The position numbers and the translations under genes were made by a program. Shown in pieces: positions 804 to 16,841 of a stretch of DNA of 64,000 nt. This DNA comes from a virus: positions 3,483-67,482 of IMG/VR virus record IMGVR_UViG_3300003316_000080; one strand, written 5' to 3'. The notes below the pieces were generated by a model. It ran no database searches, had not been told where the DNA came from, and was given only the letters and a program-made list of their open reading frames with translations. Numbering within the stretch: the stretch's first letter is position 1; every line of letters starts with the position of its first letter.

Positions 804-2255
804 GTGGAGATTCAAACCACGCTAGACGCAAGTCTGGCTGAGAACCTGTTGACGCTTCTGTGCTTTGACGACGAGCACTGCAAGCTGATCCGGTATGGGC
901 TGACGCCGCAGATGTTTGAATCGGCGGTGCTCAAGCAGATTGCCGGCGTCGCAATCGACTTCATCGATCAGTTTGGTGTCGCGGTCAAGGAGCACTTGCC
1001 CGACCACCTAGAAGACATCCTGAACGGTGAAGACCAGCGCAAGGCGAAGTCGTATCGGATGGTGCTGGAAAAGCTGTATGACTCGAAGGACGCGGTGAAT
1101 GCCGAGTTCGTCATGTCGCAGTTGCATGCATTCGTTCGCGCAGCCACGCTGAAGAGCGGACTGATGGACGCCGTTGCTCACATGGAGTCGGGCCGGATCG
1201 CGGAGTGCGAAACAGCCATGACGACAGCCTTGAGCCGTCAGGTGATTTCGTTCGAAGTGGGCACGCGACTGGACAATGCAGACAGCTTGTCGGAAGCGCT
1301 GACCAATCTGGAAGAACCGGGCTTCAACCTCGACATTGACGCTTTCGATCGCGTTGGTGCGATTCCACGCCGCAAGCAGCTGTCTGTGTTCTTGGCAGCA
1401 CGTGGCCGTGGTAAGTCATGGTGGTCGATCTACATGGGCAAGCAGGCGCTGCTGCAGCGCTGGTCCGTGCTGATTGTCACGTTGGAGTTGTCTGAGGCGT
1501 ACTACACGAAGCGCTTTCTGCAGTCGTTCTTCTCAATCTCGGACCGACAAGCCAAGGTGCTGGTGTCGGAGTTCAAGCGCGGACGTGATGGCTCGATCGT
1601 GGACGTCGTTCAGTCGGAACTGCACCGACGCACACTGCGTGACGATGACTCCTTGGAGTACATCGCAGCGCGAGCACGGCGCGAGTTCAAGCAACGCCCC
1701 CCGCTGATCATCAAGAACTTTCCTACAGCGACACTGACAGCTGAGACGCTGGAAGCGTATCTGGACGGTCTGCAGCGCCATCAGAACTTCACACCGGACC
1801 TGATCCTTGTCGACTATCCAGGCTTGATGAAGCTCGATCCCAAGAACAAGCGCATTGAGCTGGGATCGGCGGTGGAGCGTCTACGCGGCATTGCCGTAGC
1901 CCGCAACGCCCACATGGGGATCATGGCTCAGGGCAATCGTGAGTCGGAGACGGCACACACGGTCACGGCGGACATGACCGCCGAGGACATCTCGCTGTTG
2001 GCTACGGCTGACTTGTTCTTCACCTACAGCCAGACCAAGCTGGAGGAAAAGCTTAACCTCGCCCGCATCTTGTGTGAGAAGAACCGTAATGGTGTGGACG
2101 GCTTCGGGGCTCTGATCACACAAAGCTATGAGATCGGCCAGTTCTGCCTGGACTCCAGTCCGCTAGAAACTTCTTACTGGGAACTGGACGTGCACGAGCA
2201 GGAAGACGAGGACCGGCCGCGCCGCAAGAAGCGTCGCAACGAGGACGAAGAATGA
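804..2255 (+). CDS. DnaB-like replicative DNA helicase
   Basis: GTG start after AAGGA RBS; Walker A RGRGKS, DnaB-like Walker B LILVDYPGLM, MAQGNRE (H3-like). Confidence 0.7.
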   Translation: MEIQTTLDASLAENLLTLLCFDDEHCKLIRYGLTPQMFESAVLKQIAGVAIDFIDQFGVAVKEHLPDHLEDILNGEDQRKAKSYRMVLEKLYDSKDAVNAEFVMSQLHAFVRAATLKSGLMDAVAHMESGRIAECETAMTTALSRQVISFEVGTRLDNADSLSEALTNLEEPGFNLDIDAFDRVGAIPRRKQLSVFLAARGRGKSWWSIYMGKQALLQRWSVLIVTLELSEAYYTKRFLQSFFSISDRQAKVLVSEFKRGRDGSIVDVVQSELHRRTLRDDDSLEYIAARARREFKQRPPLIIKNFPTATLTAETLEAYLDGLQRHQNFTPDLILVDYPGLMKLDPKNKRIELGSAVERLRGIAVARNAHMGIMAQGNRESETAHTVTADMTAEDISLLATADLFFTYSQTKLEEKLNLARILCEKNRNGVDGFGALITQSYEIGQFCLDSSPLETSYWELDVHEQEDEDRPRRKKRRNEDEE

Positions 2256-3832
2256 TTCTGGTGTCGCGCCATGCCATCACACGCTACCTTGACCGAGAGC
2301 TAGAAACACACAAGTGGGTCAAGAAGCTGACAGAGCGTCAGCTGTGGCAGGAACTGAAGCAGCTGCGCACTGTCCCTCAGTTCAAGACTGACCCATGGCT
2401 GCACCAACTGGCGTGCTTCTATCTGGGCCTGCACTACCTGCGCTTCCTGTTCATCCTAGACATGGGGCTGGGCAAGTCGAAGTTGGTGATTGACCTGATC
2501 GAGCACCGTTTTCGGCAGAAGCGTCTCAGCATGCGCCGCGACGGACGCACAGCGCTGGTGATCGTTCCAGGCGTGCTGAATACGGTTGGATGGGGTGAGG
2601 ACATCGAGCGCCATTCACTCATGGAACCGCACCTGATCACGTGCGAGAACATTGAGCAGAAGCGCTATGAACTGCTGCACCCACAAGGTGAAGTGACCGT
2701 GATCGACATGCCGTCGCTTGCCCTAGCACTGTCCACCAAGAAGAAAGGCAAGGGTCGTGGCAAGTTGCTGGCAGACAAGCAGGCGATTGCACGCGCTCAG
2801 CAGTTGTACGGTTTCATTGGCGTTGATGAGACGCACAAGTACAAGAACCACGAAACCCTGTGGTACGACGTGCTCGATCCTCTGTGTGCAGCAGCCGACG
2901 AGGTGAAGGGGCTGACTGGAACCATCTTCAGTGCAAGTCCGATCGAGATGTGGCCGCAGTTTAATCTCGTCGACCGAGGTGAGACGTTCGAGAACCGTGG
3001 ACTCTTCCAGGCGGCCTTCTTCGACTCGAAGTCAGATCATGTGAAGGGGACTGTGTACACCTTCAGGCCTGAGAGGACACGTACTCTCAACAGGATGATG
3101 CAGCACCGCTCGATTCAGTATGACGAATCGGAGGTGCACGAACTTCCAGAGCGCGTCTATCGTCCGATCAGGATGGAACTGGCAGGCGAAGCGGACGAGC
3201 ATTACCGTCGCGCTCTGGAAGGTGTCATTAATGTTGGCGCCGCCGAGAGTAGCAAGCTAGATGGAGGCTGGGTGCGCATGCGCCAGATCTGCGGTGGCTA
3301 CCTGAAGTGGTCTGATGCACACGGAGCGCACAAGCTCATCTTTGCACAGAACCCGAAGTTGGACATGCTGATGCGCCTGCTGGAGGACATCGGAAGTAAG
3401 AAGGCTGTTGTGTGCCATGACTACACCGACAGCGCGGAACTGATCGAAGCGCGGTTTAAGAAGGAGGGCATCAAGTACGCCACGTGCTCAGGGCGGACGA
3501 AGGACAAACCGGCAGAACGCGCTCGCTTTCTCGATGATCCAACCTGCCGCGTCTTCTTGATGCAGAACGCGGCTGGGGGAACAGGCACTGACGGCCTGCA
3601 GAAGGTGTCCAACTACATGATCTTCTTTGAGTCGCCAGCCTCCCCGGGTCTGCGCAAGCAAGTAGAAAAGCGCATACATCGTCCAGGTCAGACACAGAGG
3701 GCGTTCTACTACGATTTGACATATGGGCGCACCGTCGATAGCGGCATCCGTGAAGCACACAAGCAGGGTTTTGACCTATACGAAGCCGTGATGTCTGGAC
3801 GCTCTTCGACCTTGAGAGGGCTCATGAGTTGA
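2252..3832 (+). CDS. SF2 helicase, SNF2/DEAH-like
   Basis: Motif I LDMGLGKS, motif II GVDETHKYKN, C-terminal helicase domain with GGTGTDG and HRPGQTQ. Confidence 0.7.
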   Translation: MILVSRHAITRYLDRELETHKWVKKLTERQLWQELKQLRTVPQFKTDPWLHQLACFYLGLHYLRFLFILDMGLGKSKLVIDLIEHRFRQKRLSMRRDGRTALVIVPGVLNTVGWGEDIERHSLMEPHLITCENIEQKRYELLHPQGEVTVIDMPSLALALSTKKKGKGRGKLLADKQAIARAQQLYGFIGVDETHKYKNHETLWYDVLDPLCAAADEVKGLTGTIFSASPIEMWPQFNLVDRGETFENRGLFQAAFFDSKSDHVKGTVYTFRPERTRTLNRMMQHRSIQYDESEVHELPERVYRPIRMELAGEADEHYRRALEGVINVGAAESSKLDGGWVRMRQICGGYLKWSDAHGAHKLIFAQNPKLDMLMRLLEDIGSKKAVVCHDYTDSAELIEARFKKEGIKYATCSGRTKDKPAERARFLDDPTCRVFLMQNAAGGTGTDGLQKVSNYMIFFESPASPGLRKQVEKRIHRPGQTQRAFYYDLTYGRTVDSGIREAHKQGFDLYEAVMSGRSSTLRGLMS

Positions 3833-3871: not shown

Positions 3872-4942
3872 ATGACTGGGCGGGTCTTTCGTTGGCGTGA
3901 ACTATTTGACGAACATCACGTTCGTTACATAGAGCGCGGCGCCAACGTGAAGCGCGGGGAGATCAACATCAAGTGTCCGTTCTGTGGCGCAGCTGATCCC
4001 AGCTACCACATGGGCGTCAACCTTGAATCAGGCTTTTGGGCCTGTTGGCGTAATGAGAACCACCGGGGCAAGTCGCCGCTGCGTCTCATCGTCACGCTGC
4101 TCAAGGTGTCGTACTACAGGGCCCGCGAGATCGCTGGCTTTGGTGACGACTACATCGATCCCGAGGGCTTCTCTGCTATGGCTGCACGCGTGCTGGGCCG
4201 CGACGGCCTGCTCGCTGGTGGCCGCACGGTTGACGAGGACCGGCAGCACCTGAAGTTCCCGCGTGACTTCGACACGCCACGCCGTCAGCGTGGATCGCGC
4301 GTGTGGAATTACCTCGCACGTGAACGCGGTTTCGGTGTCTTCACAGATGAGTTGATCGACTACTACAGCATCAAGTGGACTCAAGGCGCTGAAGTCAACG
4401 AGAAAGATCCCGACGCGTGGAAGAAGAAATACGCCTGGACGGATCGCGCCATCATTCCGTATTACCTCGACCACAAGCTGATGACCTGGACAGGCCGCAC
4501 GGTAAACGGTCATGCGATCCGCTACAAGGATCTCTCAGTGGACGAGTCCATCAAGCCCCCCAAACAGACGCTGTTCAACTTTGATCGCACGATCAAGGGC
4601 GGTCGGGTGCTGCTGGCTGTCGAAGGTCCCATTGATGCACTGAAGGTCGATTTCTTCGGTGCAGAGGTCAAAGTGCGCGCTGTGGCGATGAGCACCAACA
4701 GCATGACGGATGAGCAGGTATATATGCTGGCCGACGCTGCCGAACGCTTTGACCGCCTGTTGTTCATGCTCGACAACAAAACGCAATTCGGCATCGTCGA
4801 TTCGATGAAGATCAAAGCCAAGCTGAGCCACATCCCGAACGCGGGTGTGATCAGTGTTCCCTACGGCTTGGGGGATGCTGGGGCGCTCAGTCCCAAACAA
4901 GCAACGGAATGGACGGACAAACTTTCTTCGGGGGAGCTATGA
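3872..4942 (+). CDS. putative DNA primase (zinc-binding N-terminus, TOPRIM-like core)
   Basis: CPFCG...ACWRNENH zinc-binding arrangement; LLAVEGPIDALKV and LFMLDNK acidic motifs; position between helicases and polymerase. Confidence 0.5.
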   Translation: MTGRVFRWRELFDEHHVRYIERGANVKRGEINIKCPFCGAADPSYHMGVNLESGFWACWRNENHRGKSPLRLIVTLLKVSYYRAREIAGFGDDYIDPEGFSAMAARVLGRDGLLAGGRTVDEDRQHLKFPRDFDTPRRQRGSRVWNYLARERGFGVFTDELIDYYSIKWTQGAEVNEKDPDAWKKKYAWTDRAIIPYYLDHKLMTWTGRTVNGHAIRYKDLSVDESIKPPKQTLFNFDRTIKGGRVLLAVEGPIDALKVDFFGAEVKVRAVAMSTNSMTDEQVYMLADAAERFDRLLFMLDNKTQFGIVDSMKIKAKLSHIPNAGVISVPYGLGDAGALSPKQATEWTDKLSSGEL

Positions 4943-5259
4943 GGTTCAATCACGAGATGAACACGCATTTCCGCGACTGCACGTTGATCGCGGAAGCCTA
5001 CGACAGTCACCGCGATCGCCACGTGACGCTGCACATCCTGCCGGGCACTGAAGATTGCGTGGGTGTCACGGACGGCACAGACGCGTGGCTGTGCCCGATC
5101 AGCGTGGATGCGTTCGGCATCAACATCGCCAAGGCGCGCTCAGACGTGCGCGACGGCAAAGACCCCATCCGACGACAGAAACCGGCCGCGCGCCGCAAGC
5201 TGTTGCTGGAGGATCAACCCACCAGCAAGACCCGTCGTGCTTTGCTGGTGGAGGTGTGA
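4939..5259 (+). CDS. hypothetical protein
   Basis: ATG preceded by GGGGAG; overlaps primase stop; stop abuts next start. Confidence 0.35.
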   Translation: MRFNHEMNTHFRDCTLIAEAYDSHRDRHVTLHILPGTEDCVGVTDGTDAWLCPISVDAFGINIAKARSDVRDGKDPIRRQKPAARRKLLLEDQPTSKTRRALLVEV

Positions 5260-5260
5260 A

Positions 5261-5848
5261 ATGCGCAAGCAACTCGTTGCACACAAGGTGGCTCCGTTGC
5301 CGTTCGAGGGCAAGATAGCCGGCTACGTCGTGAACAACCTGGAGATGTGGAAGTACGAACCGCTCTTCACGTACAACGACATGATCCAAGAAGCCACGCT
5401 GGTGTGGCTGAAGTGCGGACAGGAATACCCGCACGTCGTCAGTAAACACTTTATGGCCCTGTTCAAGACGGCGTGGTATCGGCGCTGTGTCGATCTCGCC
5501 TATGAAGCATCGGAGTGCCGCGCACAGATCGCGATCACTTTCGGCGATACATACGGTTCGGATGACGAAACCATTGCGCTGGCTAAAGAACCGATGGGCG
5601 ATGAAGAGAACGCGGGCTACATGCGCACCCTGATCCGTCAGATCACGGAGCAGGCACCGGAAGAAGTCGTCAGCGTGTTCACGCTGATGCTCAATGCGCC
5701 GGTTGAACTGCTTGAACTGGCGTCGAACGCACTGGGACGTCGCAACAAGAACAACTCCAACATGATGGTTGCTCGTTGTCTGGGCCTGCCCGATGACAGC
5801 AAGCCTGTAGACGCAGCAAAAAGTTATGTACGCAGCGCACTGAAATAA
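5261..5848 (+). CDS. hypothetical protein, possible sigma-factor-like regulator
   Basis: ATG with GGAGGTG RBS (track ORF 5063 is an upstream extension); weak resemblance of NDMIQEATLVWLK to sigma region 2. Confidence 0.5.
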   Translation: MRKQLVAHKVAPLPFEGKIAGYVVNNLEMWKYEPLFTYNDMIQEATLVWLKCGQEYPHVVSKHFMALFKTAWYRRCVDLAYEASECRAQIAITFGDTYGSDDETIALAKEPMGDEENAGYMRTLIRQITEQAPEEVVSVFTLMLNAPVELLELASNALGRRNKNNSNMMVARCLGLPDDSKPVDAAKSYVRSALK

Positions 5849-5921
5849 GCAAAGCGCTACGTATACTTGTCCAGCTGCACAGAGCAGCAATTTCCAACCC
5901 CCTCCAAAACAAGGAGTTCCC

Positions 5922-6905
5922 GTGAGCAAGATCCAGAAAGAACTGCAGGACGTGACCGGCGTGAATCCGGCCGAGGACCAGTCGATCATCGACCCGGCCT
6001 ACATGAAGAAGGTCGTCAAGGCCGCTTCGAAGGACATTCCCGAGAAGGACTGGGACAAGCTGTCCGAGGAAGCCAAGGACTGGGTCAACGCGGCTGTGGA
6101 CGCGATGAACGAGCGCGAAGACATCAAGCCGTATCCCGACTACAAGGAACCGGCAAAGGAAGAGAAGAAGTCGACCCGCCGCCGCACCGATGATGACGAA
6201 GGCGACAAGCCGGCCGCTGCCGCCTACGCCGTCGGCGACGAGGTCGAAGTGACCAAGACCAACGGCAAGACCGTGGCCGGCGTCGTCAAGAACCTCGATG
6301 ATGACGGCGACCTCGTCCTCGAAGACGAAGAAGGTGAACTGGCCGTGCAGCTGAGCAAGATCGAGGCGGTCGTCGTGACCAAGGCCGCGAAGCCGGCCAA
6401 GGAGGAGAGCAAGCGTCGCCGCAACGATGACGACGAGGACGATGCGAAGGATGCGGGCCCCGGCGTCGGCGACGAGGTCAAGATCGTCAAGACCAACGAC
6501 CGCACCAACGAGGGTGTGATCACCTCGATCGACGAAGACGACATCGTCATCAAGGACGAAGACGGCGACGAGATCACGATCGCCCGCAGCAAGGTCAAGA
6601 CCGTCGAGATCATCAAGAAGGCGAAGAAGGCGTCTGCCAGCAAGTCCGACGTGAAGGACGACGCCAAGGACGACGAAGGCGACGGCAAGCGCAAGCGCGC
6701 CGGCAAGGGCGAGGATGGCGTGTCCGCCGCGCAGCGCGTCTTCGAGATCATGTGCGAAGACCCGCTGGACCCGCCCTCGCTGGAAGAACTGACCAAGCAG
6801 ATCCAGAAGGAAGGCCGCGACTGCAACGCCAACACGCTGAAGATCAACCACACGACCGCGTCGAAGATCTTCACGCTGCTGAAGGCCGGCAAGCACCTGA
6901 AGTGA
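5922..6905 (+). CDS. highly acidic protein with two tandem KOW-like repeats
   Basis: GTG start after AAGGAG; repeats GDEVEVTKTNGKTVAGVV.. and GDEVKIVKTNDRTNEGVI..; D/E-rich linkers. Confidence 0.6.
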   Translation: MSKIQKELQDVTGVNPAEDQSIIDPAYMKKVVKAASKDIPEKDWDKLSEEAKDWVNAAVDAMNEREDIKPYPDYKEPAKEEKKSTRRRTDDDEGDKPAAAAYAVGDEVEVTKTNGKTVAGVVKNLDDDGDLVLEDEEGELAVQLSKIEAVVVTKAAKPAKEESKRRRNDDDEDDAKDAGPGVGDEVKIVKTNDRTNEGVITSIDEDDIVIKDEDGDEITIARSKVKTVEIIKKAKKASASKSDVKDDAKDDEGDGKRKRAGKGEDGVSAAQRVFEIMCEDPLDPPSLEELTKQIQKEGRDCNANTLKINHTTASKIFTLLKAGKHLK

Positions 6906-6941
6906 TCGCCACACGGCAGCGCCCGCAAGGGCGTTGAACAG

Positions 6942-6977
6942 AGGGGCCCTGTATATTGCGGGGCCCCTTTTCTTTTG
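6942..6977 (+). terminator. rho-independent terminator
   Basis: GGGGCCC/GGGCCCC stem followed by TTTTCTTTT. Confidence 0.6.
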
Positions 6978-6988
6978 TCGGAGAACCC

Positions 6989-8155
6989 ATGACCACAATC
7001 GACAGAAGCTCGATCATGCGAGCGTGCGCCCAGGTGCGCCCCGCAGTGAGCAAACAGCCGTTCATTCCCGCGTTCACGCACTTCTGCTTCAACGAGGGTG
7101 CCGTGTTCGCATACAACGACACGCTGCTGCTCATGATGTCGTTGCCTGACGACGCGGCCGAGATGCCATCTTGCTGCGCGCCTGCCGACGTACTGACAGA
7201 AGCCCTGCGCAGCATGGGCGGCGACACAATGGAGGTGCAGCACGACACTGACTCTCGCGAACTGCACATCAAGGCCGGCCGCTCGAAGTTCAACCTCAAG
7301 ACGCTGCCGACGGAAGACTTCCAGATGCACCTGGAGCTACCCACGGCCGAAGAGAAGAAGCGCGGCTGGAAGTTTGATGCGTCTGCCGACTTCATCGAAG
7401 GCTTGCGGGCCTGCCGTATGGCCGTAGGCAACAACCCCAACCATCCGGCCTCCATGGGCATCACGCTGGGTAGTGTGAGCGGCAATGCGGTGCTGTACGC
7501 AACGGACAACGTGACCATCACGCGCTATGCCGTCGACATGGAACACGATGGAGAAGATGACGCGATCCTGCCCACACCATTCTGCGATGCCCTGCTCAGC
7601 TTCGCAAAGGCCATGCCCAACGACAGGATCGAGATCTCTGTGCTGCGCGGCGTGGTGAGCGCCACATTCCACGATAAGCGGGACAAGCACGGGATCGGCG
7701 GCGTCATCGTCACGAAGACACTGACAGACTTGGCCGCCCTCGACTATGAGCAGATCATGCGCAAGCACGTGGACATGAAGCGCGTGGCGGACATTCTGTC
7801 ACCGCTGCCGGCAGACATGGGTGCTGTGTTCGAGCGTGCCGCCGCAGTCGGCGTGGATGAGCCGCGCACCACACTGCGCCTTGTGTCGGGCTCCGATAAC
7901 GAGGTCAGCGTCAGCGCATCGGGCGTGGGTGCTCAAGCGTCAGACGTGCTCGTGTTCGATGGCAAGCGCTCAGACGAAGCTTTGGCCGCGCTCGACGAAG
8001 AAGCGGAAGACGTCAATGCTGCGCATGTGCTGCGCGCGGTCAAACACACTGACCGACTGGCTTTCGTCAAGAACGCGCTGCTGTTCGGAGACGCTAAAGC
8101 GAAGCTCCTTCACCTCGTGGGGTATATGGCACCCATCAAGAAGTCCAAGAGGTAA
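6989..8155 (+). CDS. DNA polymerase sliding clamp (beta/DnaN-like)
   Basis: ~388 aa; SKFNLKTLPTEDFQ resembles the DnaN RFSLSTLPAADFP segment; adjacent to polymerase and clamp loader. Confidence 0.55.
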   Translation: MTTIDRSSIMRACAQVRPAVSKQPFIPAFTHFCFNEGAVFAYNDTLLLMMSLPDDAAEMPSCCAPADVLTEALRSMGGDTMEVQHDTDSRELHIKAGRSKFNLKTLPTEDFQMHLELPTAEEKKRGWKFDASADFIEGLRACRMAVGNNPNHPASMGITLGSVSGNAVLYATDNVTITRYAVDMEHDGEDDAILPTPFCDALLSFAKAMPNDRIEISVLRGVVSATFHDKRDKHGIGGVIVTKTLTDLAALDYEQIMRKHVDMKRVADILSPLPADMGAVFERAAAVGVDEPRTTLRLVSGSDNEVSVSASGVGAQASDVLVFDGKRSDEALAALDEEAEDVNAAHVLRAVKHTDRLAFVKNALLFGDAKAKLLHLVGYMAPIKKSKR

Positions 8156-8158
8156 GGC

Positions 8159-10792
8159 ATGTCGTTTTTCTTCGCAGAGACAAAGCGCGCCAAGAAGACA
8201 GGCGCTCCGTCGAAGAAGGCCGTGATCCCCATCGCAAGCCTGCAGCGTGCCGGCTGCACTGTATGTCCGCGCAAGGCAGACTGGGACGACGGCATCAAGA
8301 CGCCACAGATGAAACCGGCCGGCCATCAGTCGCCGACGGTGTATCTGCTAGGCACGGCCCCGTCTGAGAAGGAAGACCGACTGGACGAGCCCTTTGTGTC
8401 CACAGCCTATGAAGAGGTGCTGTCGAAGTTGCCGGCGTCTCTGAGGCGGTATAGCCGCGTCGGCTATCTGACGCAGTGCAAGGCCGCCAGTAAAAACTTG
8501 ATGCTGGAGATGTCGCCGGACCACGCGGAGATCGAGTGCTGCCGTCCTCGCGTGATCGCAGACATCGAAGAGACGAAGCCGATTGTCGTGATCGGCATCG
8601 GCGACAAAGCGCTTAATTGGGCCCTCCCCTTCTCATCGGGCGTCACCTCGATCACGCATCGAGGCACCTTGTTTCCGGTGAAGTTCGGGACGCACACGTG
8701 CTGGTTTTACAGCGTCATGTTCCCGGCATATGTGCACCGAGAAAAGCGCAAGTATCCGACTGAGTACGAGATCGCGCTGACGCACGACCTACGCAATCTC
8801 GCTAAGTTGATCAACAACGAAGAGATTGGTGTTCCGAAGATCTACGCAGACAAGTGGGAAGAGGGTATCGAGATCGTGACAGGTCACGATGCCGGAGACT
8901 TCCAGCGTGTGGAGCGCGCACTTGCAGACATGGCAGCGCTGCCCGATGTCGCACTCGACATCGAAACCAATGGCCTGCGGCCCTGGCACTTGAACAAGCC
9001 CAGGTTGTGGACTGCCGCAGTAGGCACATTCGAGCGTGTGATCGCCTTCCCGATTGATCATCCTGACGGCTGGGGCGCTGACGCGCGCATCCGCAAGATG
9101 CACGGTCTGTTCGCTGAGTGGCTGTGGCAATCGCGCCGGAAGTGGGCACATAACCTTGCAATGGAACTGGAGTGGTTTAACTGGTTCTACAGTCCGCACG
9201 CGATCATGGGCAATGAGTGGGGCGACACGATGGCCCTTGCCCATGTACTCGACGAGCGCAAGGGCACGAAGTCATTGGAGGTGCAGACGATCATTGGCGC
9301 CGGCTTCAACCTGAAGTCCATGAGTCCAGTTGATCCGTCGTTGCCTGACTGGATCAGTAAGTACCCGATTAAGACGGTGCTGAAGTACAACGGTGGAGAC
9401 TCGAAATGGACGGACTTCCGTCGCCGCCAGCTGCAGCCGATCGTGGAGGCCGACGAAAAGCTCCATGACGTCTATCAGCACAAGATTCGAATGGCGCCGG
9501 CTTTGATCCTCACAGAGGCCAAGGGCCTACCGGTGTCTGTGCCGCGTGCTGAGAAGATGAATCGCGCACTGACGGAGCAACTGCACAAGATTGAAGACAA
9601 GCTGCGGGCTGATGTGGCTGTGCGCCGCCATACAACGCAGTTCGGCCAGTTCAGCCCGACGAACTCCGATCATGTGCTCGCGCTGATGGAAAAGACCCTC
9701 AAGCGCGATGAGATCTACATCATTGAGAAAGACGGGTCTGAGTCGAAGTCAGTCGCTGAAGAAGTGCTGGCGCTGATGCCTGAAGATGAGGTGCCATCAG
9801 CGAAGTTGATCCTGGAGCACCGGGGCATCTCCAAGCTGAAGTCGACGTATCTGGAGCCAGTGATCAAGGGCACGATGATCAGCGTCGATGGCTATGTGCA
9901 CTCGAAGTACAGCAGTCTGTTCGCCGCGACCCACCGCCTGAACTCTGAAGATCCCAACGCGCAGAACTGGCCTAAGCGCAAGCACAAGGAAGTTCGCTCG
10001 ATCTTCTACGCGGAAGATGATGAAGAGATTCTGGCGTGCGACTACGGCCAGATCGAGTTCCGCGTCGTGGGCATGTGCTCGGAGGACGACAACCTGTGCC
10101 GGGCCGTGTGGACCGGGTACGACGTGCACTTGCACTGGGCAGAGCGGATCGTCGCCCTGTATCCCAAGATCAAGGACTGGATCAGATCAGAGTTCGAGGT
10201 GGACTGGGATGAGAAGGGCATCAAGACGCTGCGCCAGGAGGCCAAGAACAAGTGGGTGTTTCCGCAGTTCTTCGGTGCCTCGATCAAGTCGTGTGCAGCC
10301 TCTCTGCACTTGCCTGAAGAGGTCGCGCAGGATCTGGCTGATGAACTATGGGATGAGTTCCGAGGCGTCAAGCGCTGGCAAGACAAGTTGATGGAGTCGT
10401 TTGCGCGCAAGCTCTACGTGGAGACGCTGGACGGTGCGCGCCGTCGTGGGCCCATGACCAAAAACGAGATCATCAACATGCCGATCCAGGGCACAGCGGC
10501 CCGCATCGTGCAGACCGCGCATGCAGCTTTGGCTGAACGCGGCTTCATCATGGATCGCGGCGTGTATATCCCATCGCTGAACGTACATGATGACCTCTCA
10601 ACCTGGAGCAAGAAGGCAGAGCGGGAGGCCAACGTGAAGATCATCGTCGAAGAGATGTGCAAGCACCGATTTGACTGGATCAACGTGCCGCTGCTGGTGG
10701 AAGTGTCGGCCGGGCCTGACTGGTCCGACCTGACCGAGATCGGCAAGTACAGCAGCCATGAGCTGTTCAACATCAGGAACCCTTACCAATGA
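8159..10792 (+). CDS. DNA polymerase, family A, with N-terminal uracil-DNA glycosylase (family 4-like) domain
   Basis: N-term GTAPSEKEDRLDEPFV (UDG family 4 motif); exo DIETNG; pol motifs DYGQIEFRV, QGTAARIV, NVHDDL. Confidence 0.85.
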   Translation: MSFFFAETKRAKKTGAPSKKAVIPIASLQRAGCTVCPRKADWDDGIKTPQMKPAGHQSPTVYLLGTAPSEKEDRLDEPFVSTAYEEVLSKLPASLRRYSRVGYLTQCKAASKNLMLEMSPDHAEIECCRPRVIADIEETKPIVVIGIGDKALNWALPFSSGVTSITHRGTLFPVKFGTHTCWFYSVMFPAYVHREKRKYPTEYEIALTHDLRNLAKLINNEEIGVPKIYADKWEEGIEIVTGHDAGDFQRVERALADMAALPDVALDIETNGLRPWHLNKPRLWTAAVGTFERVIAFPIDHPDGWGADARIRKMHGLFAEWLWQSRRKWAHNLAMELEWFNWFYSPHAIMGNEWGDTMALAHVLDERKGTKSLEVQTIIGAGFNLKSMSPVDPSLPDWISKYPIKTVLKYNGGDSKWTDFRRRQLQPIVEADEKLHDVYQHKIRMAPALILTEAKGLPVSVPRAEKMNRALTEQLHKIEDKLRADVAVRRHTTQFGQFSPTNSDHVLALMEKTLKRDEIYIIEKDGSESKSVAEEVLALMPEDEVPSAKLILEHRGISKLKSTYLEPVIKGTMISVDGYVHSKYSSLFAATHRLNSEDPNAQNWPKRKHKEVRSIFYAEDDEEILACDYGQIEFRVVGMCSEDDNLCRAVWTGYDVHLHWAERIVALYPKIKDWIRSEFEVDWDEKGIKTLRQEAKNKWVFPQFFGASIKSCAASLHLPEEVAQDLADELWDEFRGVKRWQDKLMESFARKLYVETLDGARRRGPMTKNEIINMPIQGTAARIVQTAHAALAERGFIMDRGVYIPSLNVHDDLSTWSKKAEREANVKIIVEEMCKHRFDWINVPLLVEVSAGPDWSDLTEIGKYSSHELFNIRNPYQ

Positions 10793-11754
10793 CACGACGC
10801 AAACTGGCCGATGAAGTCACGCACGGTAAAGACCTCGCGCAGCGCTGGCGACCTCGCAATCTGGGTGAGGTGGTCGGACAAAGCGCAGTGGTTCGCTCGC
10901 TCGAAGCGATGCTGAAGCGCGAGACGCGTCCGCACTGCTTCATCTTCACTGGACCCTCGGGCGTGGGCAAGACCACACTGGCGCGGATCGTCGCTCAGGA
11001 GTTGGGGGCACAGCACAACATTGTGGAGATCGACGCTGCGACCAACACGGGCGTTGACGCAATGCGTGATGTGCTGGCAGGCACGATCTACAGCGGCTTT
11101 GGCAGCAACTCCAAGTTCTATCTGATCGACGAGGCACACATGCTCTCGAAGGCAGCGTGGAACTCGATGTTGAAGACGCTGGAGGAACCACCCGACCACG
11201 TTTACTTCGCGATCTGCACGACGGAGCCAGAGAAGCTGCCGGCAACGATCAGCACACGCGGTCCTGTCTATGCACTGAAGTCTGTGCCGCGCAAGGACAT
11301 CAGCAACCACCTGATCCTGATTGCTGAAGAAGAGAGCCTGGAAGTCACAGATGAGGGGCTGGATAGGATCGCAGAGGCTGCTGGCGGCTCGCTGCGCGCT
11401 GCGATCAACATGATGGTTGCAGCAGACGGTGTGAGGGGTGATGACCTGGATGACATCATCGAACGTGCAGATGCGGGCGGCAACAAGCAGGTCATTGATC
11501 TGGCCCGCGCATTGGTCAACGACCAACTGACGTGGACGAAGCTGACGGGCATCCTGAAGGATCTGGAGGGCCAGAGCGCGGAGGGCGTCCGCATTGTTGT
11601 GGTCAACTTCACAGCTGCGTGCTTGATGAAGGCCACATCAGACAAGCAGATCGCACGGCTGTTGAACGTGCTGCACGCCTTCTCCACCCCATACACCACA
11701 GCCGACAAGATGGCACCCTTGCTCCTCTCGTTCGGCAACCTTCTGTATAAGTGA
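10789..11754 (+). CDS. AAA+ clamp-loader subunit (DnaX/RFC-like)
   Basis: Walker A GPSGVGKTT, Walker B YLIDEAHML, sensor TRGP. Confidence 0.7.
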   Translation: MTRRKLADEVTHGKDLAQRWRPRNLGEVVGQSAVVRSLEAMLKRETRPHCFIFTGPSGVGKTTLARIVAQELGAQHNIVEIDAATNTGVDAMRDVLAGTIYSGFGSNSKFYLIDEAHMLSKAAWNSMLKTLEEPPDHVYFAICTTEPEKLPATISTRGPVYALKSVPRKDISNHLILIAEEESLEVTDEGLDRIAEAAGGSLRAAINMMVAADGVRGDDLDDIIERADAGGNKQVIDLARALVNDQLTWTKLTGILKDLEGQSAEGVRIVVVNFTAACLMKATSDKQIARLLNVLHAFSTPYTTADKMAPLLLSFGNLLYK

Positions 11755-12257: not shown

Positions 12258-12375
12258 ATTTTTGGCATTGGTAGTGGGCGCAGTCGGCGGCGTGCTGGCG
12301 GTCTACATCTGTGTGCGGGTCGCCTCAGCCGCATATTTCAAGTCACTGAGGCAACACAATGAGGAAACCAAATGA
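12250..12375 (+). CDS. small hydrophobic protein (41 aa)
   Basis: ATG..TGA ORF MSEFLALVVGAVGGVLAVYICVRVASAAYFKSLRQHNEETK, one predicted TM helix; too short for the ORF track. Confidence 0.3.
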   Translation: MSEFLALVVGAVGGVLAVYICVRVASAAYFKSLRQHNEETK

Positions 12376-13601
12376 GAAACCGTGACGATGATGACCGTGG
12401 TTCGCGCCGTGGTCGCGATGATGACGATGACCGCCGCAGCAGCCGTGGCCGTGACAGCGGTTCGAGCCGTGGCGGTTTCGTCTACAAGCAGCGCAGCGCC
12501 GAAGAGAACCGCAAGCGCGCCGAGAACACCGGACGAGACTTCGAGTCGATTTACAAGGACGGTGTCAACCTATACAAGGTCAAGGACGGCGACAACAGCG
12601 TCCGTGTGCTGCCGCCGACGTTCAAGGGCGCCCAGCACTACGGACTCGACATCCAGGTCCACTTCGGCATCGGGCCCGACCGCGCGACGTACCTGTGCCT
12701 CAACAAGATGCTGGACAAGCCGTGCCCGATCTGCGAGGCACGCCAAGAAGCGCAGCGTGACGGGGACGACGAACTGGCGAAGGAACTGGCACCCAAGCAG
12801 CGTGTTCTCGTCGCCCTGATCGATCGTGATGATGAGAAGGCCGGTGTGCAGATCTGGGGCATGCCCTGGACCGTCGACCGTGACCTGGCCCAGGTTGCCG
12901 TCGATCGCAAGACCAAGGAAGTGCTGCCGATCGACCATCCTGAAGAAGGGTATGACGTCTTCTTCACGAAGACGGGCAAAGAGCGCAACACGAAGTACGG
13001 CGGCATCTCTGTGGACCGGCAGCCGTCAGAACTCGGCCGGCGCGGCGACGAGTGGCTGGACTGGATTCAGGAACACCCGCTGGACACGCTGCTGAACTAC
13101 GCCAGTTACGATGACATCGCCAAGGCGTTCAACGGCGGCGGCTCTGGTGGCGGTTCGCGTCGTCGCGATCGCAGCGATGACGACGATGACCGCTCTTCGC
13201 GTCGTGGCCGTGATCGTGACGATGACCGCAAGAAGGACGATGTCCTGTCGTGGGATGACGTTCACGGCATGAAGCCGCGCGAACTCGAAGACCTCGCAGC
13301 TGAGCACGGCATTAAGTCGTCCAAGTACGACGATGACGAAGAACTGGCTGACGCGATCTGTGAAAAGCTGGACATCAGCAAGCCCAAGCCGCGACGCTCG
13401 CCTGGACGTGATGGCGATGACGACGATGACCGCTCTTCGCGTCGTGGCCGTGATCGTGATGACGATTCCAATGAGAAGACGGCGCGTCGTCGGTCCAATG
13501 ATGACGACGAGGACGACACCCCGCGCACCCGTCGCCGTGAGGCCAATGACGACGATGACGCGGAAGAAGGTCTGCGCAAGATGCGCCGCCGCGCGGAGTG
13601 A
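12372..13601 (+). CDS. gp32-like single-stranded DNA-binding protein with Arg/Asp-rich repeat termini
   Basis: H-x12-C-x8-C-x2-C (HFGIGPDRATYLCLNKMLDKPCPIC) matches the T4 gp32 zinc-site pattern; located between clamp loader and RecA-like gene. Confidence 0.55.
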   Translation: MRNRDDDDRGSRRGRDDDDDRRSSRGRDSGSSRGGFVYKQRSAEENRKRAENTGRDFESIYKDGVNLYKVKDGDNSVRVLPPTFKGAQHYGLDIQVHFGIGPDRATYLCLNKMLDKPCPICEARQEAQRDGDDELAKELAPKQRVLVALIDRDDEKAGVQIWGMPWTVDRDLAQVAVDRKTKEVLPIDHPEEGYDVFFTKTGKERNTKYGGISVDRQPSELGRRGDEWLDWIQEHPLDTLLNYASYDDIAKAFNGGGSGGGSRRRDRSDDDDDRSSRRGRDRDDDRKKDDVLSWDDVHGMKPRELEDLAAEHGIKSSKYDDDEELADAICEKLDISKPKPRRSPGRDGDDDDDRSSRRGRDRDDDSNEKTARRRSNDDDEDDTPRTRRREANDDDDAEEGLRKMRRRAE

Positions 13602-14707
13602 TCATGGCAGCACGCAAAACGACCAAGCCTGCGGTGAAGCAGGCAGCGCCCAAGTCGGTCGCGGCTCGCAAGCGTGCTGTTCTCCGTGATGTGGATGAGG
13701 GCTCTGACGAGTTCGTCGAGCCCTCCTACTTCTCTGCGGGGGACAGCAAAACCAACATCGAGTTCATCTCAACTGGATGCACGATCCTGGACGAGGCGCT
13801 GGGTGGGGGTGTCGCTGAAGGACGTGTGCTGAATGTCGTCGGTGACTCGTCCACGGGCAAGACACTGCTGGCAATGGAGATCGCGGCCAACTTCGCGCTG
13901 AAGCATGCGGAAGGACTCGTCCGTTACGCTGAAGCAGAACTGGCCTTCGACGATGATTATGCGGAAGCGATGGGCATGGACCTGTCGCGTGTCGAGCGCA
14001 ACAGCGGCTCGCGCCTCGTGGGCACCGTCGAGCAGTGGCACGATGATCTCGTCGACTTCATGAAGAGGCTGAAGGGTCGTCCTGGCCTGTACATCCTCGA
14101 CAGCCTCGACGCGATCTCCGATGACGATGAGGTGAAGGCCGAGTTCGGTGAAGCCAGCTACGGCGGCAAGAAGCCCAAGCTGATCTCCCAGCTGTTCAGG
14201 CGCACGATCAATGATCTGCATGCGGCCAACGTGACGCTGATGATCGTCTCGCAGACGCGAGACAAGATCGGTGTGACCTTCGGGCCGACGAAGACGCGAT
14301 CAGGCGGCAAGGCGCTGGAGTTCTATTCGTCACAGATCGTTTGGCTGGCGCATGTCGGCAAGATGGACAAGACGATCGATGGCATCAAGCGCGTGATCGG
14401 TCATGAGGTCCGCGCCAAGGTCAGCAAGAACAAGTGCGGACTGGCGCACCGGACTGTCGACTATCCCGTGCTGTATGGCTACGGAATCGACGACATGATG
14501 GCGGGCGTGACGTGGCTGATCGAGAACAAGTGCGATGAAGCTCTGGAAGAACTCGAACTGACCAAGGCCGGTGCGAAGACTTCAGTGGCGGCCATGCGCA
14601 ACAAGCCGGAGCGCGCTCGCGAGTTTCGTCCGAAGATGCGCAAGATCGTGCGTAGGGAATGGGCGCGCATCGAAAACCTGTTCTTGCCTAAGGCCCGTAA
14701 ATACTGA
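13598..14707 (+). CDS. RecA/UvsX-like recombinase
   Basis: FISTGCTILDEALGGGVAEGRVLNVVGDSSTGKTLLA matches the RecA N-terminal/Walker A region. Confidence 0.8.
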   Translation: MIMAARKTTKPAVKQAAPKSVAARKRAVLRDVDEGSDEFVEPSYFSAGDSKTNIEFISTGCTILDEALGGGVAEGRVLNVVGDSSTGKTLLAMEIAANFALKHAEGLVRYAEAELAFDDDYAEAMGMDLSRVERNSGSRLVGTVEQWHDDLVDFMKRLKGRPGLYILDSLDAISDDDEVKAEFGEASYGGKKPKLISQLFRRTINDLHAANVTLMIVSQTRDKIGVTFGPTKTRSGGKALEFYSSQIVWLAHVGKMDKTIDGIKRVIGHEVRAKVSKNKCGLAHRTVDYPVLYGYGIDDMMAGVTWLIENKCDEALEELELTKAGAKTSVAAMRNKPERAREFRPKMRKIVRREWARIENLFLPKARKY

Positions 14708-14989: not shown

Positions 14990-15589
14990 ATGACCAGTAA
15001 AAAGTTACTGTGTGGAATCGATCCGGGCGCCAAGGGCGCCTTGGTCGTTTTGGATGAAGACGGCACGGTGATCGCGTGGTTGCTGATGCCCATGATCAAG
15101 CAGGGAACTCAGGAGCGTGTGAACGCTGCGGCTGTGGCGGCATTCCTGAAGCCCTATGCCGCCAACATCACAGCGAATCTCGAACTGGTCGGAGCAATGC
15201 CGGGTCAGGGCGTCGCCAGCATGTTCAGCTTTGGTCACTCGGCCGGCGTAGTTACTGGGGTACTGGGCGCACTGGAGATCCCTGTCACGCTGATCACGCC
15301 TCAGAAGTGGACGAAGCACTTCAACCTGGGTTCGAAGACAAAGAGCCCAGACCAAGCACGCGGCCTCGCAGCACGCTTCTGGCCCGCGTGGCGTGAACTT
15401 GACTTCAAGGGCAAAGGCGGTGCACTGGCAGACGCGGCGTTGATCGCGCGCTACAGCCTCGGACTCAATCGGGAAGCCATCGCGTATAACTCGGCACCGC
15501 GCAAGACGCGTCATGTGCTGAAAGAACTCGATGAAACTCCCCGCACTGCTGGTCGCCGACCTGCACCTGACGGCAAGCCCAGCCGATGA
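14990..15589 (+). CDS. RuvC-like Holliday junction resolvase
   Basis: N-terminal GIDPG, C-terminal ADAALIARY; RuvC-like size and layout. Confidence 0.7.
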   Translation: MTSKKLLCGIDPGAKGALVVLDEDGTVIAWLLMPMIKQGTQERVNAAAVAAFLKPYAANITANLELVGAMPGQGVASMFSFGHSAGVVTGVLGALEIPVTLITPQKWTKHFNLGSKTKSPDQARGLAARFWPAWRELDFKGKGGALADAALIARYSLGLNREAIAYNSAPRKTRHVLKELDETPRTAGRRPAPDGKPSR

Positions 15590-16526
15590 GTACCGGTGGG
15601 ATCTTTTCCCCTGGCTGCTTCACACGCTGCAGCAAGAGCGTGTAGCAACACTGAACATCCTTGGCGACATCACTGACGCCAAGGACTACCACCCGGCCAA
15701 GTTGGCAAACAGGCTGGTGGGTGAAGTCCAAAAGTTGTCCCAGGTGGTGCCCGATGTGCGCATCCTGATGGGCAATCACGATTACCTGAAGCGCCAGGAG
15801 GCGTACTTTTCTTTCCTGTCCTATCTGCCCGGCGTGCGCTACATCGATACGGCCTGGGAGGACACACTAGACGACGGCCCGTCTGTCTACTACCAGCCCC
15901 ACACGAAAGACCCTGTGAAGGATCTGGCTGGCGACTTCACTCATTACGACTACCTGTTTATGCATCAGACAGTGAAAGGGTCTGTTGCATCGAACGGTCA
16001 GGAGATGCCGGGCTACGGAGACAGTCGCATCAAGGCGCTGAAGATCTACAGTGGTGACATCCACGTGCCCCAGATCATCAATGGCGTCGAGTACGTCGGC
16101 TCGCCCTACCACGTTCACTTCGGCGATGACTTCAAGCCACGTGCAGTGCTGCTCGACAAGAAAGGTCGCGCCCATGATCTGCACTTTGACTCACCACGGC
16201 GCGTGATGCTTAAGGTGGGATCGCTGAAGCAGTTGCGTGCTCTCCAACTGGACAAGGGTGATCACGTCAAGGTCACGTTCAACCTGGAACCGTCTGATGC
16301 GGCGGATTGGTCGCAGATTCGCCGTGCTGCTGCACGCGTGCTGGGCGACAGAGGTGTGATCACGCATGAACTCAAGATGTCCATGAACAAATCGGATCGC
16401 CGTATATCGAGCCAGCAGGCCACGCAGATGGCGCTGCTGCGGCCGGAGGACATCATGACGCGCTGGGTTGAGCGCGAAGAACTGGGCGGCGAGGCCCTTG
16501 AGATCGGATTGGAGCTACTGAAATGA
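15531..16526 (+). CDS. SbcD/Mre11-like nuclease (calcineurin-like phosphoesterase)
   Basis: ADLHL, GDITD, GNHD metallophosphoesterase motifs. Confidence 0.8.
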   Translation: MKLPALLVADLHLTASPADEYRWDLFPWLLHTLQQERVATLNILGDITDAKDYHPAKLANRLVGEVQKLSQVVPDVRILMGNHDYLKRQEAYFSFLSYLPGVRYIDTAWEDTLDDGPSVYYQPHTKDPVKDLAGDFTHYDYLFMHQTVKGSVASNGQEMPGYGDSRIKALKIYSGDIHVPQIINGVEYVGSPYHVHFGDDFKPRAVLLDKKGRAHDLHFDSPRRVMLKVGSLKQLRALQLDKGDHVKVTFNLEPSDAADWSQIRRAAARVLGDRGVITHELKMSMNKSDRRISSQQATQMALLRPEDIMTRWVEREELGGEALEIGLELLK

Positions 16527-16840: not shown

Positions 16841-16841
16841 T

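Follow-up and report, generated by a model that had tools for sequence, protein, structure and literature searches.

A net acidic phage protein with two predicted SH3-like barrels, encoded in the replication module: a possible replication adaptor

What does an acidic, repeat-containing protein do among the replication genes of a phage? The question is raised by one locus in a 64,000-nt stretch of viral DNA (positions 3,483 to 67,482 of IMG/VR record IMGVR_UViG_3300003316_000080), which is referred to here as the window. A sequence-only reading of this DNA had described the gene product as highly acidic and dominated by D/E stretches, with two repeats resembling KOW or SH3-like barrels, and had suggested a DNA mimic with anti-restriction activity or a role in the replisome or in host takeover.

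The gene, its relatives and its expression signals

The open reading frame at 5922-6905 is a genuine phage gene (Table 1). It has a strong Shine-Dalgarno sequence, as in 12/12 genomes, and the GGAG is kept at the equivalent site in relatives. We discarded a 435-aa minus-strand open reading frame (5691-6998) as an antisense artefact, as the homologues, a GC3 of 0.88 and the Shine-Dalgarno sequence all lie on the plus-strand frame.

The protein belongs to a large phage family annotated solely as hypothetical or of unknown function. We found 184 cluster representatives (50%-identity clusters) at E<1e-30, with alignments that run nearly all end to end, and 1,867 at E<1e-3. It also matched phrog_38529 (E 1.2e-5), but the members of that family are annotated "hypothetical protein" or "unknown function" and membership confers no function. 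ZHS_68 of Edwardsiella phage vB_EpM_ZHS (31% identity, E 8e-21) and KF4_062 of Vibrio phage vB_VpaS_KF4 (Mardecavirus; hhalign 99.7%, E 1.9e-26) are both full-length homologues that share its architecture and gene position. A tblastn search recovered no more than 62 aa at the N-terminus, in Vibrio phages, with low-complexity filtering as the probable cause; hhalign was needed to see the homology over the whole length. At the DNA level, 8 kb around the gene had no match among GenBank phages, and the PolA of the window phage is 52% identical to the nearest PolA of a GenBank phage. No relative turned up in bacterial and archaeal genomes, a weak negative as the scan used a single peptide pattern, and literature searches returned no characterised homologue.

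We compared the locus of the homologous gene in 12 genomes. In all 12 the order is a sigma-like open reading frame, the gene studied here, clamp or 7-deazaguanine genes, and PolA, and this bears out the earlier placement of the gene in a replication module. The position is conserved from Vibrio siphoviruses to the myovirus-type genome of the window, where the clamp gene starts with the ATG at 6989. There are no iterons or origin-like repeats around the gene, and the DNA repeats within it simply reflect the duplication in the protein.

In each of the 12 genomes the homologous gene is preceded, at a distance of 48-72 nt, by a GTATA motif. On the plus strand of the window YGTATA is enriched ahead of gene starts: seven of 15 sites lie 20-130 nt upstream of one, against a background of 0.089 (p 1.5e-4), and the sites are confined to the first 34 kb. 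The helicase, clamp, PolA and SbcD genes are preceded by the motif as well, and no structural gene is. At the motif of the gene studied here, a sigma-70 scan also marked TATACT. A 5' hairpin occurs at the same offset in 11 of the 12 relatives, each individually weak, and RNAalifold gave no consensus structure for the 5' leaders; a search of Rfam returned nothing above threshold. A terminator follows the gene in all 12 genomes, in eight of them with GTATA within the hairpin; in the window this second GTATA (6951-6955) sits in the terminator loop, 38 nt upstream of the clamp ATG.

Codon usage sets the gene apart from its module. In codon bias (Nc 27.9, GC3 excess +0.144) it is on a par with the major head protein gene (Nc 29.1, GC3 excess +0.146), while the other replication genes have Nc values of 37-48. 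In four other genomes, including that of an AT3-biased Vibrio phage, the homologue has the lowest Nc of its module. High abundance is therefore predicted: judged by codon bias, which is a proxy for abundance only, the gene is probably very highly expressed and appears to be among the two most strongly expressed genes of the phage.

Table 1. Features of the gene and its product, in window coordinates
Feature	Position	Strand	Details
Promoter-like motif CGTATAC (family consensus YGTATA[A/T/G])	5860..5866	+	Putative; 61 nt 5' of start codon
Small hairpin near expected transcript 5' end	5874..5888	+	MFE -8.3 kcal/mol, z -2.3; weak evidence
Shine-Dalgarno AAGGAG	5911..5916	+	Sequence reading; 5 nt 5' of GTG start
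CDS	5922..6905	+	GTG start, 327 aa, 35.9 kDa, pI 4.8; phrog_38529
N-terminal acidic helical domain, aa 1-77	5922..6152	+	Helices 3-12, 25-38, 41-44, 49-63
Disordered linker 1	6153..6221	+	pLDDT <50; RRR (aa 86-88) then DDDEGD
Beta-barrel 1, aa 101-156, SH3-like/RimP-CTD/KOW/LSm type	6222..6389	+	AF2 strands 107-112, 117-125, 130-135, 138-143, 147-154; NCBIfam RimP match
Disordered linker 2, with KRRRNDDDEDD	6390..6455	+	pLDDT <50
Beta-barrel 2, aa 179-234	6456..6623	+	AF2 strands 185-190, 195-203, 207-211, 217-221, 225-232; KOW7_SPT5 and GatD matches
Disordered linker 3, net basic (KKAKK...GKRKRAGKG)	6624..6707	+	pLDDT <50
C-terminal three-helix domain, aa 263-327	6708..6902	+	Helices 269-279, 287-296, 303-322; pLDDT 85-92
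Intrinsic terminator	6940..6978	+	14-bp GC-rich stem and T-run; MFE -25.1 kcal/mol, z -4.5

Domain architecture and the barrel fold

AlphaFold (AF2) predicted four folded units strung on three disordered linkers. On this model the protein would be a non-enzymatic "beads-on-a-string" chain composed of a new helical head, two barrels, a small helical tail and charged linkers. The two repeats seen in the sequence were recovered with a z of about 20, and the guess that they are KOW/SH3-like held up: both are predicted to be small SH3-like beta-barrels, with backing from fold searches and from HMM matches that range from sub-threshold to significant. Linker 2 belongs to the 78-aa internal repeat. 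In the family the barrels number one, two or three per chain while the N- and C-terminal domains are constant, and these numbers are compatible with a six-membered ring without demonstrating one.

Conserved residues in the N-terminal domain are W44, W54, N56, D60 and P72-D73; it had no structural match to anti-sigma domains or to any solved structure, and a profile database search for domain fusions found only one truncated family member. The C-terminal domain is possibly winged-helix-like. It gave sub-threshold matches to ArgR N-terminal DNA-binding domains in a PDB sequence-profile search (E 0.07-0.4), and Pfam Arg_repressor was matched by 3 of 31 members. Whether run with the family as a whole, with the N-domain or with the C-domain, the PDB profile searches returned, besides ArgR, only weak barrel matches and designed helical proteins.

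The protein is indeed net acidic (D+E 24%, pI 4.80, net charge -19 over 327 aa, or about -0.06 per residue), and the pI is 4.6-5.7 across the family. To call it highly acidic was an overstatement, since K+R make up 18% of its residues. Much of the acidity falls in the disordered linkers, beside Arg clusters; R86-R88 are basic in 84-97% of 89 members and the RRR is nearly invariant. Family-wide, linker 3 (net charge +3 in this protein and as the family median) and the C-domain, which has eight conserved basic positions, are the sole net-basic parts, and the other folded domains are net acidic. The barrels have conserved basic positions (114/116/146 in barrel 1, 192/194/224 in barrel 2) and conserved acidic ones (106/124/139 and 184/202/219). 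In this protein one family-conserved basic loop residue is lost per barrel (N114 and N192).

The barrels are nearest to the RimP C-terminal domain (E 3e-7), KOW and LSm/Hfq. The NCBIfam RimP model PRK00092.4-1 matched aa 96-150 over model positions 83-136 of 142 (E 3.2e-7), and Pfam DUF150_C was matched by 56 of 89 members. The protein thus shares the C-terminal barrel feature of RimP (PF17384), but RimP_N was matched neither by it in Pfam nor by the members, and over the full length it scores 30.7 bits where the cut-off is 205. Its barrels also differ from RimP in being in tandem, on long linkers, between unrelated flanking domains and in the setting of a phage replication module.

The best single Pfam match is KOW7_SPT5 on barrel 2 (E 1.5e-4, 21.9 bits against a cut-off of 27.1). 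KOW itself (PF00467) was not matched by the protein in the Pfam search; among the relatives, 19 of 89 matched KOW7_SPT5 (best E 1.4e-10) and 6 of 89 matched KOW (best E 1.5e-7). The top Foldseek matches include Spt5 KOW6-7 (E 4.5e-4) and KOW2-3 (E 8.8e-4). With the KOW domains of NusG, Spt5 and uL24 the protein has the five-stranded SH3-like barrel in common, its G-D-x-V...G-x-V spacing resembles the KOW motif when the sequence is read by eye, and Spt5 likewise carries several barrels on flexible linkers. In contrast to NusG and Spt5, it has no NGN (alpha/beta) domain, and its own N-domain is all-helical and unmatched.

The NCBIfam GatD N-terminal region matched barrel 2 (E 9e-6), and Pfam SM-ATX, BPL_C and LSM matched barrel 1 below threshold, LSM at 15.8 bits against a cut-off of 23.4. 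Compared with Sm/LSm/Hfq proteins, including the non-ring EDC3, LSm12, LSm14 and ataxin-2, the protein has no N-terminal helix before strand 1 in the AF2 model. It also lacks the aromatic cage of Tudor domains: there is no F, W or Y in the barrel cores (aa 103-154 and 181-232), and the family median is 1-2 aromatics per barrel with none at a conserved position. No catalytic family was matched by the protein in Pfam, NCBIfam, PHROGs or PADLOC.

A shared charge motif and the role of the protein

No more than three real genes in the window carry the motif [RK]RR-x0-2-[DE]3+: the DnaB-like helicase has it in its C-terminal tail, the protein studied here in its linkers and the gp32-like SSB in its tails. 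Relatives have equivalent tails. Because the motif is also on the SSB and helicase tails, we propose that the protein is a stoichiometric cross-linker or hub. The best explanation of its role, to which we assign a probability of only about 0.3, is that of a multivalent adaptor, abundant and non-enzymatic, in the replication machinery of the phage; where the gene lies, the class of its promoter-like motif and the charge motif that its linkers share with other tails lean towards such a replisome role. The predicted fold, the family, the conserved gene order, the expression signals, the codon usage and the shared motif are observations; each binding step and each partner is inferred. Each barrel is preceded by a disordered linker with an Arg cluster and then an acid cluster. 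The barrels would use the canonical SH3-type face, where the beta1-beta2 loop and the 3-10 turn carry conserved basic and acidic residues. Barrels and terminal domains would bind short charged motifs or partner proteins, and the hub would concentrate SSB-coated DNA, helicase and perhaps other replisome parts, acting neither as an enzyme nor as a DNA mimic. A variable number of barrels between constant end domains is as expected for a valency module.

Several points argue against the adaptor. Synteny extends over the whole module, which makes adjacency unspecific as evidence, and codon bias is a proxy for abundance. The Arg-rich and acidic tails could simply serve nucleic-acid binding or solubility, as in other highly charged proteins, the nearest relatives of the barrels (RimP-CTD, KOW, LSm and ProQ-CTD) belong to RNA and ribosome machinery and not to replisomes, and in each barrel one of the conserved basic loop residues is replaced by asparagine. 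It could also be speculated that this abundant multivalent protein is the scaffold of a new electrostatic interaction code in a large phage clade. Its tandem acidic barrels would read the Arg/acid motifs of its own linkers and of the SSB and helicase tails, and would so drive the assembly, possibly condensate-like, of a replication factory in a tailed phage of the ordinary kind; we regard this as unlikely.

The main rival to the adaptor, and in our judgement an unlikely one, is an RNA- or ribosome-directed factor whose barrels and Arg-rich linkers bind RNA or the 30S subunit and modulate translation, mRNA stability or ribosome maturation. The RimP-CTD/KOW/LSm type of the barrels and the Arg-rich linkers, which are RGG-like in Vibrio homologues, are consistent with it, and there is a precedent in the T4 translational repressor RegA, which is encoded within the replisome gene cluster. 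On the other hand, family-wide the C-domain is the only folded domain that is not net acidic, neither the N-terminal helix of Sm proteins nor the N-domain of RimP is seen in the protein, and the matched fold is very widespread and also used for protein-protein binding; gene position and shared motifs favor the replisome. Another possibility is a cofactor of RNA polymerase that works with the upstream sigma-like protein, the barrels docking on the polymerase as CarD, Mfd-RID and NusG do via Tudor/KOW-like domains, the N-domain serving as sigma partner or anti-sigma and the C-domain contacting promoter DNA. The sigma-like open reading frame (window 5261-5848) is immediately upstream in 12/12 genomes, the clade has a predicted non-canonical GTATA promoter class and the best single Pfam match is an Spt5 KOW domain. 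Two homologues of the sigma-like frame are named "sigma24 family" by JGI, no Pfam family is matched by more of its 63 members than Sigma70_r2 (4 members, best E 0.0025), and in hhalign region 2 of RpoE falls on the segment where it would be expected; however, the hhalign probability to RpoE is 3%, there was no PDB sequence match, and a comparison with an approximate T4 gp55 sequence gave nothing. The two genes are not an operon, as the gene studied here comes with a promoter-like motif and a terminator of its own and differs strongly in codon bias from the sigma-like gene, and since the whole module is syntenic their adjacency is not specific evidence and carries little weight. With an N-domain unlike anti-sigma domains and no NGN domain, this cofactor role is quite unlikely.

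It is improbable that the protein is an abundant architectural protein of dsDNA, comparable in role to phi29 p6 or SPO1 TF1, in which the C-domain and basic linker 3 would form the anchor and the acidic barrels would project from the DNA. The sub-threshold ArgR matches, the confinement of net basic charge to linker 3 and the C-domain with its conserved basic positions, and the high predicted abundance all point in this direction. Finally, the DNA mimic of the earlier proposal, whose acidic surfaces would fill the nucleic-acid-binding clefts of host proteins as those of Ocr and ArdA do, or as in the acidic Sm-like Rho inhibitor Rof/YaeO, now has a very small chance of being correct. Like T7 Ocr and ArdA the protein is net acidic, phage-encoded and probably highly expressed, but it is a large (36 kDa) multi-domain protein with three disordered linkers and no sequence or family similarity to DNA mimics. 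Nearly a fifth of its residues are basic, its pI is not extreme, and conserved basic patches lie on the barrels and the C-domain. No anti-restriction or defense-related match was found in Pfam, NCBIfam, PHROGs or PADLOC, the last a weak test as its models describe defense and not anti-defense. The gene also lies inside the replication module, with a replication-type promoter motif, and not in an early or host-takeover region.

Comparison with known replisome networks

If the protein is a stoichiometric replisome hub, T4/T7-style replication models would gain a new component, and the odd tails rich in Arg and Asp that the SSB and helicase carry in this clade would acquire a meaning. If it targets the ribosome or RNA instead, it would be a new abundant phage factor of the RNA machinery. 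Edwardsiella phage vB_EpM_ZHS and the Vibrio Mardecavirus are cultivable relatives in which experiments could be done.

Electrostatic tails are familiar in replisomes, as in the acidic C-terminal tails of T7 gp2.5 and gp4 and the C-terminal tip of E. coli SSB. The arrangement described here resembles such tail networks in that a short charged motif is common to the SSB, the helicase and a third protein, which is a functional analogy and not homology. The motif described here is not purely acidic, as it has two parts, first an Arg cluster and then an acid cluster. The alternation of small barrels with linear motifs in one chain likewise recalls, again by functional analogy, the multivalent SH3-ligand scaffolds.

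Sequence, fold and family of the 327-aa protein

The ORF encoding the 327-aa protein is genuine: it is preceded by a Shine-Dalgarno-type sequence (see table), and its N-terminus, MSKIQKEL, is shared by all homologues, which shows that the start was called correctly. The minus strand has a 435-aa ORF (5691-6998) antisense to this gene and to the last part of the one before it. This ORF is almost certainly spurious, a by-product of strong GC3 bias in the plus-strand gene; homologues match the plus-strand frame.

The product had been described from the sequence alone as highly acidic. The protein (35.9 kDa) is indeed net acidic, with a pI of 4.80 and a net charge of -19; however, 42% of its residues are charged (D 44, E 34, K 46, R 13), 18% are basic and lysine is the commonest residue of all. 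It is therefore a polyampholyte and not a polyanion.

The two internal repeats that had been proposed are real: residues 81-159 and 161-238 align with a score of 164 (35.7 +/- 6.5 for shuffled sequences, z 19.8). The repeat unit is ~78 aa, a K/E-rich linker with RRR and DDDE followed by a ~55-aa barrel, and DNA repeats inside the gene only reflect this protein-level duplication. AlphaFold2, run with a 12-sequence alignment, gave a model (mean pLDDT 71, pTM 0.26) of four folded units joined by three linkers; the pTM indicates that the domains have no fixed mutual packing. The N-domain is without a solved relative and the overall architecture is unlike that of any characterised protein.

In this model both barrels are SH3-like small beta-barrels, a known fold, and the earlier guess of KOW/SH3-like barrels is thus borne out for the fold by AlphaFold2 and Foldseek. 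The matches of the protein in the PDB (Foldseek E 1.6e-4 to 4e-3) were tandem Tudor domains (53BP1, BAHCC1), Spt5 KOW6-7 and KOW2-3, Agenet pairs and Hfq. Its Pfam matches all fell below threshold (KOW7_SPT5, 21.9 bits vs a cut-off of 27.1; SM-ATX, BPL_C, the RimP C-terminal SH3 domain and LSM), while in NCBIfam barrel 1 resembled the RimP C-terminal region (E 3.2e-7) and barrel 2 the GatD N-terminal region (E 9e-6). Among 89 family members the commonest Pfam matches were RimP_C (56, best 1.4e-11), PUA_4 (45), OrtA (36) and LSM12 (26), with KOW7_SPT5 (19, best 1.4e-10), LSM (19) and KOW (6, best 1.5e-7) also present. These results assign the barrels to the "translation-protein SH3-like / Sm-like" world; in sequence they are nearest to the RimP C-domain. 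A methyl-reader Tudor identity was rejected, because F, W and Y are absent from the barrel cores of the protein and the family conserves no aromatic position in its barrels.

By sequence, the protein is a member of an existing, wholly uncharacterised phage family. Twelve homologues came from a word-indexed search. When cluster representatives were searched exhaustively with a profile, 1,867 matched at E<=1e-3, of which 831 reached 1e-10 and 184 reached 1e-30; with few exceptions, the best 150 align over their full length and are 300-345 aa long. Cultured members are KF4_062 of the Vibrio phage vB_VpaS_KF4 (Mardecavirus; hhalign probability 99.7%, E 1.9e-26) and ZHS_68 of the Edwardsiella phage vB_EpM_ZHS (31% identity, E 8e-21), the window's nearest cultured relative by PolA (51.6% identity). 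Both are annotated "hypothetical protein" and phrog_38529 "unknown function", and literature searches found no published work on these homologues or the phrog_38529 family.

Shorter and longer members have one barrel (P0088, P0157) or three (P0025, P0030, P0054, P0075, P0101, P0120) with the same N- and C-domains. The copies in three-barrel members are very similar to each other, which suggests recent duplication. Counts of 1, 2 and 3 all divide six, and would allow an Hfq-like six-barrel ring. Across the family the pI ranges from 4.6 to 5.7 and the net charge from -4 to -26, with medians of -5 for the N-domain, -4 for each barrel (never positive), +3 for linker 3 and +2 for the C-domain. Each barrel has conserved acidic positions and three conserved basic ones: the beta1-beta2 loop carries two, and the 3-10 turn that leads into strand 5 carries the third. 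SH3-type barrels bind ligands in this region. R86-R88 of linker 1 are basic in 84-97% of the family.

Features of the window and of the 327-aa protein
Feature	Position	Strand	Remark
5'-3' exonuclease	72-794
DnaB-like helicase	804-2255	+
SNF2 helicase	2252-3832
Primase	3872-4942
Small orf	4909-5259
195-aa orf	5261-5848	+	sigma-like lead
Small hairpin	5874-5888	+	same offset in 10 other loci
AAGGAG, Shine-Dalgarno-type	5911-5916	+	five bases 5' of start
327-aa protein gene	5922-6905	+	GTG start
N-domain, helical	aa 1-77		AlphaFold2
Linker 1	aa 78-100		pLDDT <50
Barrel 1, five-stranded	aa 101-156		AlphaFold2
Linker 2	aa 157-178		pLDDT <50
Barrel 2, five-stranded	aa 179-234		AlphaFold2
Linker 3	aa 235-258		pLDDT <50
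C-domain, three-helix	about aa 263-327		AlphaFold2
Terminator hairpin	6940-6978	+	MFE -25.1 kcal/mol, z -4.5 for hairpin alone
Beta-type clamp	6989-8155
PolA with N-terminal UDG-superfamily domain	8159-10792	+	Pfam UDG, aa 57-202
Clamp loader	10789-11754
gp32-like SSB	12372-13601	+
RecA-like gene	13598-14707		from homologous gene in L003, L004
SbcD and SbcC	15531-18997
830-aa DNA methyltransferase	20878-23370
Major head protein	39636-40853
YGTATA[A/T/G] sites	719, 5861, 6951, 8122, 15484, 16402, 18892, 25820, 33650	+
Charged motif, helicase	C-terminal tail		...RPRRKKRRNEDEE
Charged motif, 327-aa protein	linkers		RRRTDDDEGD, KRRRNDDDEDD
Charged motif, SSB	tails		ARRRSNDDDEDD, TRRREANDDDD, two copies of DDDDRSSRRGRDRDDD

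Expression signals and codon usage

Most genes of the module abut or overlap, and spacers of ~65-90 nt flank this gene on both sides in every one of the 12 genomes compared. In all 12, which span 49-65% GC, YGTATA[A/T/G] lies 48-72 nt 5' of the start. The promoter-like motif, which often reads CCGTATAAT and is without an obvious -35 element, may mark promoters of a phage-specific (middle?) class. On the plus strand below 54 kb YGTATA occurs 15 times, always within the first 34 kb; seven sites (eight with ATG 6989 taken as the clamp start) stand 20-130 nt before a crudely called gene start, against a background fraction of 0.089 (binomial p 1.5e-4), and no structural gene in the window is preceded by one.

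A strong intrinsic terminator (dG -19 to -33 kcal/mol) follows the gene in 12/12 genomes. A second GTATA is found in the hairpin loop, just 5' of the next gene, in the window and seven loci of relatives (L002, L003, L004, L006, L008, L009, L010), so this compact arrangement is kept in eight of the 12. Near the expected mRNA 5' end, 11-14 nt after the G of GTATA, 11 genomes have a small hairpin that might serve to stabilise or regulate the mRNA; these hairpins are individually weak (z -0.6 to -2.3, one at -6.7) and covariation among the 12 genomes was not demonstrable.

Corrected for amino-acid composition, the GC3 excess of the gene (+0.144) equals that of the major head protein (+0.146), with other replication genes at -0.07 to +0.03. 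Nc is similarly low for the gene (27.9) and the head protein (29.1), and lies at 37-48 in the remaining genes. In four other genomes, too, no gene of the module has a lower Nc than the homologue (L002 25.8, L003 44.3, L004 28.7, Vibrio phage 34.5), and as the bias of the Vibrio phage is towards A/T-ending codons, the low Nc is not a GC artefact. Together, the spacers, promoter motif, terminator and codon bias predict a separately transcribed and very highly expressed gene.

Neighbourhood and a shared charged motif

The gene lies between the helicase/primase genes and the clamp, as the sequence-only reading had placed it; portal, protease, major head protein and tail sheath are encoded downstream of the replication module. 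The UDG-PolA fusion is also present in L002 and L003. Several relatives have 7-deazaguanine genes (QueC, FolE, TGT-like) between the homologue and the clamp (L002 11110-13609, L003 11037-13512 and L004 7134-9542, with QueC, GTP cyclohydrolase I and TGT/DpdA-like genes). In the window the clamp follows directly, without such genes at that position; a DNA methyltransferase is encoded elsewhere instead.

Within the window, the only real genes with the motif [RK]RR-x0-2-[DE]3+ are those of the helicase, the SSB and the 327-aa protein. Most helicases of relatives have RRRR(R) and then acidic residues at their C-terminus (L002, L004, L005, L008, L010), and the linkers of the cognate homologues of the 327-aa protein carry PARRRATQEE or APRRSRRSADADDE. 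Long polyampholyte tails rich in Arg and Asp extend from both ends of the SSB and contain repeats such as DDDDRSSRRGRDRDDD, and similar tails occur in L003, L004, L006 and L009; this pattern is clade-wide. The shared motif is the only evidence tying the 327-aa protein specifically to other replisome parts, and it is suggestive rather than conclusive.

Possible roles

Our tentative reading, to which we assign a probability of about 0.3, is that the protein serves the replication machinery as a multivalent hub, in the manner of a stoichiometric adaptor or scaffold. The lack of an enzymatic signature, the one to three barrels, the long charged linkers and the two distinct conserved end domains fit such a role, as do the predicted capsid-like abundance, the replication-type promoter motif and the motif common to SSB and helicase. 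In this view SSB-coated DNA and helicase would be concentrated through contacts of the barrels and end domains with partners or short charged motifs. The main rival, somewhat less probable, is an RNA- or ribosome-directed role: the nearest relatives of the barrels (RimP-CTD, KOW, LSm, ProQ-CTD) have RNA machines as their targets, and in the 30S subunit the RimP C-domain occupies the site at h44 and also touches RsmA (PMC8177701).

It could also be speculated that the protein is an RNAP cofactor teamed with the product of the upstream 195-aa gene, a candidate for a highly divergent sigma factor. This is unlikely: the sigma assignment comes from two homologues named "sigma24 family" by JGI, weak matches in 4/63 homologues (best E 0.0025) to Sigma70_r2, which no other Pfam family exceeds in number of homologues matched, and an hhalign alignment of RpoE region 2.1-2.2 to aa 32-59 at 3% probability, and a PDB sequence match was not found. 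The two genes are in the same order in 12/12 genomes; as the entire module is syntenic, their adjacency alone is weak evidence. Slightly less likely still is a dsDNA architectural protein with the C-domain as anchor, the sole lead for that domain being a sub-threshold similarity to ArgR/AhrC winged-helix DNA-binding domains (E 0.07-0.41; Pfam-level ArgR match in 3/31 members). The DNA mimic first suggested on account of the acidity is improbable: the protein has many basic residues and a pI of 4.8, its basic patches are conserved, much of its acidity is in disordered regions and no anti-restriction family matched it, and the gene's place and promoter class also argue against this role.

The family is large, functionally blank and apparently very highly expressed, and the hub model is a concrete hypothesis that can be tested in cultivable relatives. 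A functional precedent for such a hub exists in T7, whose gp2.5 and gp4 use their acidic tails to contact common binding sites on the polymerase. The protein can be likened to small-beta-barrel repeat adaptors and, in kind, is no surprise.
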